Assembly (NCBI RefSeq): GCF_003334355.1
Contig: NZ_QOWP01000023.1
Origin: Escherichia coli
GTDB lineage: Bacteria; Pseudomonadota; Gammaproteobacteria; Enterobacterales; Enterobacteriaceae
Length of the DNA stretch: 64,000 nt
Strand: one strand, 5' to 3'
Both the position numbers and the translations under genes were made by a program. The notes beneath the pieces were generated by a model. That model had not been told where the DNA came from. It worked only from the letters and a program-made list of their open reading frames with translations, and made no database searches. Positions 29,046-29,499 of this stretch are shown one piece after another; position 1 is the stretch's first letter; each line of letters starts with the position of its first letter.

Positions 29046-29076
29046 CTCGCTGATTAAAATATCCAGGGAAGGAAAT

Positions 29077-29340
29077 ATGATCGATCTGGAAAACCAGGAA
29101 CGGGAGATTATCAATTTAATGTTCAGCCAGCGTATTTCCTGGCTAGCCGCCGTGCGTATCAGGCATAAATTATCGCTTGCTGAAGTAAGTAAAATGTTAG
29201 GTATCTCGATTAATTCTCTAAAACAGATCGAAAAGACGGAACGGCTTAGCTCAAACATCAAAAGCAAAATGGCAGAAATTTATGGTTGTCCACCAGAGTT
29301 GCTGATATGCCCTTCCTGGATGACGGCTGAACATAAATGA
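29077..29340 (+). CDS. Small XRE/Cro-like helix-turn-helix protein (87 aa); possibly an HTH-only remnant of yjjJ/hipH
   Basis: Shine-Dalgarno-like agggaaggaaat directly upstream of ATG; HTH-like segment LSLAEVSKMLGISINSLKQIEKTER; lies where K-12 has yjjJ. Confidence 0.6.
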   Translation: MIDLENQEREIINLMFSQRISWLAAVRIRHKLSLAEVSKMLGISINSLKQIEKTERLSSNIKSKMAEIYGCPPELLICPSWMTAEHK

Positions 29341-29437
29341 ATAGATTCGTGAATAGATACTTGAATGTATTTTATTTTTTATCTATATGAAAAATAATAG
29401 TAAATCTATAAATCAGTTGCTATTGATGAATAGATAC

Positions 29438-29469
29438 TAAAAGCCGGAGCAGTCTCCCACTCCGGCTTA
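29438..29469. terminator. Terminator downstream of deoD (bidirectional hairpin)
   Basis: Hairpin gccggag-N10-ctccggc flanked by A-run/T-run. Confidence 0.7.
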
Positions 29470-29499
29470 ACACGACAATCGCCTTTCAGCGAAACACAA

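Follow-up and report, generated by a model that had tools for sequence, protein, structure and literature searches.

The question raised by this locus is what has become of the toxin gene hipH (yjjJ) in a stretch of 64,000 nucleotides of Escherichia coli DNA (contig NZ_QOWP01000023.1, assembly GCF_003334355.1; hereafter the window), in which the gap between lplA and deoD contains a single small open reading frame (ORF) of 87 amino acids (aa), here called HTH87. An earlier reading of the letters alone (the sequence-only reading) had described a gap of about 450 bp that lacks yjjJ and holds one small gene with a strong Shine-Dalgarno (SD) sequence and an XRE/Cro-type helix-turn-helix (HTH), and had proposed that this gene may be the HTH part of YjjJ left after deletion of the kinase domain. 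The description was borne out: the gap (29046-29499) measures 454 bp, no yjjJ sequence was found in the window allele by tblastn, and the ORF list, Pfam and AlphaFold2 agree on the small HTH gene. The proposed origin was not. The explanation that we consider likely is that an unrelated solo HTH gene occupies the hipH slot and that the control module of hipH, an array of TGAATAGAT repeats, has been kept beside it.

Allelic replacement at the hipH locus

In K-12 the site between lplA and deoD is occupied by the 443-aa YjjJ, as the sequence-only reading had stated and as the K-12 annotation confirms. Seen in the orientation of the window, K-12 yjjJ (locus L001) lies on the minus strand, with its stop codon abutting that of lplA and its ATG 166 bp from deoD. 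By pairwise nucleotide alignment and megablast, a comparison that the earlier reading had recommended, homology between the two alleles ends at the lplA stop (29045/29046) and returns at 29332. Since the two breakpoints coincide with the lplA stop and the hipH start codon, HTH87 fills the coding slot of hipH. The features of the replaced part are:

29046-29331, no strand: allele-specific segment of 286 bp, replacing the 1,329 bp yjjJ/hipH coding sequence of K-12 (pairwise alignments)
29065-29073, plus strand: SD-like purine-rich run AGGGAAGGA before the ATG (read from the sequence)
29077-29340, plus strand: HTH87, intact 87-aa Xre/Cro-type HTH gene with ATG start, identical to WP_000566150.1
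29332-29334, minus strand: CAT aligned with the K-12 yjjJ ATG, right edge of the replacement and His86 codon of HTH87 (alignment, K-12 annotation)

In a set of 5,426 complete genomes of E. coli, 4,058 (~75%) have the window allele, counted as present where 80% or more of the 454-bp gap was matched, and 1,348 (~25%) have yjjJ; in about 20 genomes neither allele was accounted for. In E. coli, for which a survey had likewise been recommended, yjjJ was encountered full-length, absent or truncated (E. coli WB61). The earlier statement that the locus differs in a strain-specific manner therefore stands in part: it is a variable toxin locus, but the window shows the majority state of E. coli and not the peculiarity of a strain. 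E. coli ATCC 8739 matches positions 28900-29650 with 100% identity, and its RefSeq annotation names the ORF 'helix-turn-helix domain-containing protein'. The last 71 bases of lplA carry 8 differences from K-12, against about 0-5 per 100 further away, which fits old alleles carrying linked divergence. Both alleles of the locus are old, and the window allele is the commoner of the two.

HTH87 is not a remnant of YjjJ

YjjJ does have an N-terminal HTH, as had been stated (residues 15-34, encoded in a monocistronic operon; PMC8262856; also evident in the sequence), HTH87 has roughly the length of such a domain, and the yjjJ start codon still has its aligned CAT in the window. A remnant of this domain would nevertheless be expected elsewhere: HTH87 is encoded on the strand opposite to K-12 yjjJ, at the end of the slot that holds the yjjJ C-terminus. 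The distance of 31 bp from lplA, which had been taken to fit a remnant, argues against one because the HTH of yjjJ is encoded at the deoD end and on the other strand. BLASTP of HTH87 against YjjJ returned matches of 5-6 residues and one 22-residue stretch at 36%, the best E value being 0.21 for 6 residues outside the YjjJ N-terminus, and tblastn of HTH87 in the yjjJ loci gave no match in any frame. The HTH classes differ as well, since the YjjJ N-terminus (LLLQGPRSAPELRQRLAISQATFSRLV...FGKARATRYAL, with the helix SQATFSRLV) resembles a winged helix and not an Xre domain. True remnants were found as minus-strand pseudogenes, comprising YjjJ residues 1-64 in E. coli WB61 and residues 1-49 in Phytobacter diazotrophicus; a remnant in Kosakonia sp. 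S29 covers residues 318-383. By strand, position, lack of similarity and HTH class, descent from YjjJ is so improbable that it can be set aside. The fallback of the earlier reading, an unrelated small regulator, is the one that was correct, and the 87-aa ORF should not carry the label of a yjjJ fragment.

The 87-aa gene and its relatives

HTH87 matched the Pfam family HTH_3 (PF01381) with E = 1.2e-6 over residues 23-76, covering model positions 1-55 of 55. The AlphaFold2 model, computed from a small alignment, had a mean predicted local distance difference test (pLDDT) score of 87 and a confident helical Xre-type fold, consisting of the five-helix Xre core with a further helix at each end, that at the N-terminus spanning residues 4-18 and that at the C-terminus being short. 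Foldseek assigned this model a probability of 1.00 to CylR2, P22 C2 and SinR, and a profile search of the PDB matched generic Xre repressors. By domain match and predicted fold, HTH87 is thus a member of the Xre/Cro-C1 HTH class. A PADLOC match to HTH_VI (3e-6) was rejected: the similarity is that of HTH domains in general, and the surroundings contain no defence genes.

No terminator-like site was found in the 31 bp between lplA and HTH87, and the corresponding gap in orthologues is 6-70 bp. Because of the short gap and the missing terminator-like site, HTH87 is probably co-transcribed with lplA, the transcript ending at the deoD hairpin. A sigma-70 consensus scan gave no convincing promoter for HTH87; the sole promoter-like match between lplA and HTH87 overlaps the HTH87 start codon. 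No paper mentioning HTH87 was found in a literature search.

A word-indexed search with HTH87 retrieved proteins of Escherichia and Shigella only. An exhaustive search of 1.84 billion representatives returned Escherichia-type proteins and one 87-aa relative (P0079, 44% identity), followed by regulators of ~125 aa whose C-terminal half aligns with HTH87; as far as these searches reach, the HTH87 family is tiny. An ~87-aa toxin gene of RelE/ParE type lies directly upstream in four of the five ~125-aa relatives that were examined. In the relatives from Pasteurella phage Pmp14 and Enterobacteria phage PPyecE_EH1910 the preceding gene is annotated 'RelE-like toxin' and 'plasmid stabilization protein', respectively, and in two relatives on metagenome contigs the preceding toxins match Pfam PF05016; the fifth, P0081, has a 35-aa ORF alone upstream. 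HTH87 itself matched PHROG 7241 (phrog_7241) at 3.4e-10 and Pmp14 gp33 with 38% identity (E = 3e-14, residues 3-77). No toxin gene adjoins HTH87: the gap contains no other credible ORF, and downstream follow the repeat module and then deoD. Since the N-terminal domain of these relatives is absent and there is no toxin neighbour, HTH87 would be a solo, antitoxin-derived regulator; this view is part of the explanation that we regard as likely.

A mobile-element origin of HTH87 was rejected, as the 'plasmid' matches were mislabelled chromosomes or megareplicons of 0.4-4.9 Mb and no close phage copy was seen. An apparent homologue with 72% identity (P0033; L086, L087) was discarded because its substitution pattern suggests C-to-T converted or error-rich reads. 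Additionally, the 54-aa protein P0074 is a chimera of an unrelated N-terminus and the HTH87 C-terminus; in one source it is named 'GhoT/OrtT family toxin', probably wrongly.

The shared repeat module

In every full-length hipH locus examined (11 of 11, with 49-100% HipH identity) and in four of the five HTH87 loci, a shared module of ~100 bp separates the cargo gene from the terminator of deoD. It comprises, in order, two or three tandem TGAATAGATnnn units with a period of 12 bp, a spacer with the box TGAAAnnTAnAG, and a fourth unit TGAATAGATACT located ~65 bp past the third. In the window the module and the adjoining terminator are composed of:

29338-29373, plus strand: three tandem 12-bp units, TGAATAGATTCG, TGAATAGATACT and a degenerate TGAATGTATTTT (motif search, cross-genus alignment)
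29388-29400, no strand: spacer box TGAAAAATAATAG, conserved in the form TGAAAnnTAnAG across 12 loci that include both allele types
29427-29438, plus strand: distal fourth repeat TGAATAGATACT, position and sequence kept from E. coli to Erwinia
29441-29468, minus strand: intrinsic terminator hairpin of deoD with a 12-bp stem and, on that strand, UUUU after it, adjoining repeat 4

Exact TGAATAGAT occurs four times in the 64-kb window against 0.38 expected, a number reached in 0 of 100 shuffles, and three of the four copies lie within 98 bp (29338-29435). The remaining one stands by itself at 5459-5467, on the plus strand. To our knowledge, none of the ArgR, Cra, OxyR, DnaA, Fur and CRP consensus sequences fits the repeat; that of Cra comes closest but its central CG is missing.

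Both cargo genes are closely joined to the array. The hipH ATG lies 0-3 nt from repeat 1 and is not accompanied by an SD-like sequence in the loci inspected (L001 2990-3040, L007, L011, L019, L026, L050, L070, L094-L096), so that translation initiation of hipH may be unusual or repeat-dependent. In the four HTH87 loci with a preserved array, repeat 1 begins with the TGA that ends the HTH87 reading frame. On the minus strand the box TGAAAAATAATAG reads as a -10-like TATTAT and carries an allele-specific base; it is a candidate core of a hipH-type promoter, which would be directed toward HTH87.

The module was absent at empty sites and at sites with other cargo, and in gene-less remnants it decays, with mismatches building up in the inner repeats. 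Whole or partial modules with no intact cargo were seen in Kosakonia quasisacchari (L024), Kosakonia sp. S29 (L042) and Phytobacter diazotrophicus (L027), which appear to be snapshots of hipH loss. Beside hipH the motif is invariant down to 49% protein identity. Beside HTH87, in E. coli, Superficieibacter and UBA3516, repeats 1 and 4 deviate from the motif by no more than one base. The spacers have diverged with an allele-specific signature, TGAAAAATA beside HTH87 and TGAAA(A/T)GTA beside hipH, which argues against recent copying between the allele types. As a side observation, E. coli PK8241 (L004, 2898-3356) carries an IS200C transposase gene between yjjJ and deoD, within the module of the hipH allele.

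A scan of IMG/VR for TGAATAGATNNNTGAATAGAT matched 89 contigs. Four of these encode a full-length HipH homologue of 35% identity among other neighbours, with two exact copies and one degenerate copy of the repeat ~20 nt upstream of its ATG. In the other 85 contigs (L098-L186) neither a HipH-N-like nor an HTH87-like protein was found. They have a GC content of 0.31-0.59 and tandem TGAATAGAT with the 12-bp period; the arrays often abut a start codon or SD sequence, and several have six or seven copies. These arrays could be chance matches to 12-bp tandem repeats or a wider regulatory motif.

Conservation and inactivation of HTH87

Orthologues of 86-87 aa were found at the lplA-deoD site in a divergent E. 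coli lineage (87% identity), Superficieibacter sp. (54%), Enterobacteriaceae bacterium UBA3516 (51%) and one metagenome contig (44%). Between genera the synonymous divergence (dS) is 0.4-2.4, with synonymous sites near or past saturation, and the ratio of nonsynonymous to synonymous divergence (dN/dS) is 0.15-0.32; higher ratios were obtained for one close pair (0.60) and between two E. coli lineages (0.70). Because a length of 86-87 aa has been kept in five diverged lineages at dN/dS of 0.15-0.32, these comparisons indicate that HTH87 is a real gene under long-term purifying selection and not a chance ORF.

Inactivation within complete E. coli genomes was counted with allele-specific 41-mers. 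The nonsense mutation Q49* (CAG to TAG, window position 29224) was present in 1,691 genomes, a one-base deletion at 29265 together with the loss of one 12-bp repeat unit in 141, and the wild-type 41-mer in 2,036. Moreover, three of the seven diverse alleles fetched beyond that of the window bear a RefSeq pseudogene label. The window copy is intact, has neither Q49* nor the frameshift, and shares its accession with the O157:H7 copy (WP_000566150.1). HTH87 is dispensable in E. coli, because at least 45% of its carriers have a nonsense or frameshift mutation.

The site in other genera

For an outgroup survey, one genome per species was taken with LplA as anchor, giving 80 loci; 71 of these had lplA as well as deoD on the stretch that was fetched. 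The site is empty, with an lplA-deoD spacer of at most 112 bp, in 54 of these 71 species, including most representatives of Citrobacter, Salmonella, Klebsiella and Enterobacter as well as E. whittamii. At the site itself, a hipH gene with 60-95% identity was found in E. albertii, Citrobacter sp. Cu233, Kosakonia pseudosacchari, Pseudocitrobacter, Leclercia and Silvania; some Salmonella enterica, Cedecea davisae and Erwinia tasmaniensis also have one downstream of deoD (49-58% identity). From this outgroup distribution it follows that hipH, patchy as it is, is to be seen as the older and more widespread occupant and the HTH gene as a derived replacement in few lineages.

Gaps of 760-1,430 bp between lplA and deoD hold other cargo at L029, L031, L034, L056, L060, L072 and L082, characterized from translations alone: a fimbrial-subunit-like secreted protein (L031 and L060), a possible REP-associated (IS200-like) transposase (L034 and L082), a small lipoprotein (L029), a 209-aa membrane protein (L056) and a 406-aa secreted protein (L072). 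The lplA-deoD spacer looks like an insertion hotspot.

Interpretation of the locus

In the explanation that we consider likely, an old event would have exchanged the coding sequence of hipH, up to its start codon on one side and to the stop codon of lplA on the other, for HTH87 in the opposite orientation, and the upstream control module of hipH would have stayed in place. HTH87 would then be transcribed together with lplA, and its product would bind DNA as a repressor-type HTH protein. The TGAATAGAT array is most likely the autoregulatory operator of HipH, read by the winged-helix N-terminus of the protein, because the module travels with hipH across Enterobacterales and accompanies a 35%-identical homologue elsewhere; the putative recognition helix (SQATFSRLV) and wing (GKARATRYAL) of HipH are nearly invariant in the Enterobacterales orthologues examined. 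Since the repeats are intact beside HTH87 over saturating synonymous divergence, they would still do something in the HTH87 allele as well, and they appear to be under selection in both allele contexts. It is conceivable, and can be proposed tentatively, that HTH87 acts on the retained array or on its leftward promoter; the orphaned leftward hipH promoter is a possible antisense control of the lplA-HTH87 transcript.

Several points weigh against parts of this explanation. The repeats are direct and asymmetric (TGAATAGATACT), whereas Xre-type dimers normally read inverted repeats. The start of the predicted HTH87 recognition helix varies (INS, PDA, PES, AEA) beside an invariant repeat, which argues against HTH87 reading it, and the orthologue at L085 has retained the gene and lost most of the array. 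The sigma-70 consensus scan of the module found no strong promoter and did not call the box TGAAAAATAATAG. The operator is assigned to HipH from co-occurrence alone, and co-transcription with lplA is deduced solely from the short gap and the missing terminator. The disrupted copy in at least 45% of E. coli carriers implies that any function of HTH87 is conditional.

That the array is read by a conserved host factor instead of HipH or HTH87, with the target of HTH87 elsewhere in the genome, is doubtful, although it would account for the same motif standing beside two unrelated HTH proteins and for the variation of the HTH87 recognition-helix residues next to a constant motif. It would also suit the response of the hipH promoter region to cyclic di-GMP (c-di-GMP), which this region mediates by an unidentified route (PMC11452175). 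A host factor is harder to reconcile with an array that is absent at every empty site and decays after cargo loss, and is thus tied to the cargo. The array furthermore follows a 35%-identical HipH homologue into another context, as fits a cis-encoded binder, and its motif is not known to match any operator consensus. Unlikely, too, is that HTH87 is a functionless, decaying relic, a stranded antitoxin fragment of an old insertion beside which the repeats persist for unrelated reasons. Q49* and the frameshift together with the annotated pseudogenes among the additional alleles would be expected of such a relic (1,691 and 141 of ~4,058 carriers; three of seven alleles), as would dN/dS of 0.70 between two E. 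coli lineages, many truncated protein clusters and the lack of a partner toxin. On the other side stand the intact 86-87 aa in five lineages with saturated synonymous sites and dN/dS of 0.15-0.32, and the two disrupting mutations may represent two events inherited by large clades.

The remaining alternatives give HTH87 a role against HipH. We hold it to be improbable that the locus is an old two-allele system, in which the HipH toxin and HTH87 would both be wired to the TGAATAGAT array and HTH87 would serve as a substitute repressor or immunity factor, binding the array or HipH and, for example, silencing the orphaned hipH promoter that would fire antisense into HTH87 and lplA. Still less probable is that HTH87 is an orphan antitoxin or 'immunity' allele that silences the hipH promoter or neutralizes HipH. 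It is related to antitoxin HTH domains, the HipH operator module is common to both alleles, no genome with both genes was seen, and overproduction of HipB, another Xre-type antitoxin of ~88 aa, rescues YjjJ toxicity (PMC9948734). However, genomes with the window allele have no hipH to counteract, HTH87 has no specific similarity to HipB and is often inactivated, and mutual exclusion follows trivially from the sharing of one slot. Retention of the hipH control module beside an unrelated solo HTH gene is therefore the explanation that we keep.

Flanking genes and further observations

The gene order in the window is serB, ytjB, lplA, the 87-aa ORF, deoD and deoB. The two genes next to the gap are:

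28029-29045, plus strand: lplA, lipoate-protein ligase A (ORF list; RefSeq annotation of the identical ATCC 8739 region)
29500-30219, minus strand: deoD, purine nucleoside phosphorylase, the right-hand flank (ORF list; ATCC 8739 RefSeq annotation)

The terminator hairpin of deoD folds as RNA with -27 kcal/mol (z = -3.2). A search of Rfam over 28900-29600 gave no structured RNA match at E <= 1. Two minus-strand gene candidates, the antisense ORF at 29004-29267 and a 27-codon ORF beginning at the retained CAT, were rejected, as neither is conserved in the orthologous loci of Superficieibacter and UBA3516.

In K-12 the convergent stop codons of lplA and yjjJ are directly adjacent (L001 1672-1700), and a GC hairpin CCCGCCCATGCGGG within the last yjjJ codons may serve both genes as a bidirectional terminator. 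No counterpart of this hairpin follows lplA in the window allele. The deoD-deoB spacer of the window contains a GC-rich palindromic repeat-like insert (30232-30292, CACCCTCTCCCTGTGGGAGAGGGCCGGGGTGAGGGC...), and the spacer of K-12 is different and shorter (56 bp vs 79 bp in the window). The same peptides of GEG/PLP type result from translating the gap ORFs of L026 and L071, which suggests similar elements at the lplA-deoD site of other genera.

Significance and comparison with known systems

HipH (YjjJ) has been studied in K-12 and uropathogenic E. coli (UPEC) as a toxin of persistence and genome stability. About three quarters of sequenced E. coli, including O157:H7 and ATCC 8739, have HTH87 instead, and because HipH is missing in ~75% of genomes, conclusions drawn on HipH do not transfer to most strains. 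This absence and the candidate HipH operator, by-products of the analysis, are its most practical outcome. The candidate operator, TGAATAGAT at a 12-bp period with three proximal copies and one distal copy, is directly testable, and no paper describing it was found in a literature search. HTH87 is an uncharacterised gene that most E. coli carry at the hipH locus, often in inactivated form, and the locus illustrates how a toxin gene may be swapped for an antitoxin-type gene with its control region retained.

YjjJ/HipH, a Ser/Thr kinase toxin of the HipA family (NCBIfam NF007297), and HTH87 have the same lplA-deoD slot and the same adjacent TGAATAGAT module in common. They differ in strand and HTH class, only HipH has a kinase domain, and there is no sequence similarity between them. 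Solved generic Xre/Cro repressors are closer in structure: the five-helix HTH cores of CylR2, P22 C2, the SinR N-domain and restriction-modification C-proteins superpose on HTH87 with a root-mean-square deviation of 1.4-2 Å over 53-60 residues, at 20-30% identity only, and unlike them HTH87 has the extra N-terminal helix 4-18 and a conserved C-terminal CPxWM tail.

The HTH of HigA-like Xre antitoxins (PHROG 7241; Pmp14 gp33, PPyecE_EH1910 gp290) is homologous to that of HTH87, with the motifs SxLAAxRI and AxIYxC in common. HTH87 is without their N-terminal domain of ~50 residues, and its alignment to these relatives, 122-133 aa long, is confined to their C-terminal ~75 residues. Upstream it has lplA instead of a toxin gene, and its recognition helix starts with I-N instead of the canonical Q-S.

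The HipB antitoxin, like HTH87, is a small (87-88 aa) Xre-type protein at a Hip-kinase locus. The HipB family model (NCBIfam NF007271) gave no match to HTH87 at E <= 1, and no hipA-type kinase gene lies beside HTH87 in the window allele. The hipBA operon has four operators (TATCC-N8-GGATA) across its promoter region, and four operator-like sites likewise span a putative promoter region at the HTH87 locus. No operator of the HipB type is present in the locus; unlike those of hipBA, its sites are direct 12-bp repeats of other sequence, positioned 3' of the HTH87 gene. By analogy, the array of HipH would be comparable in logic to the four hipBA operators of HipB.

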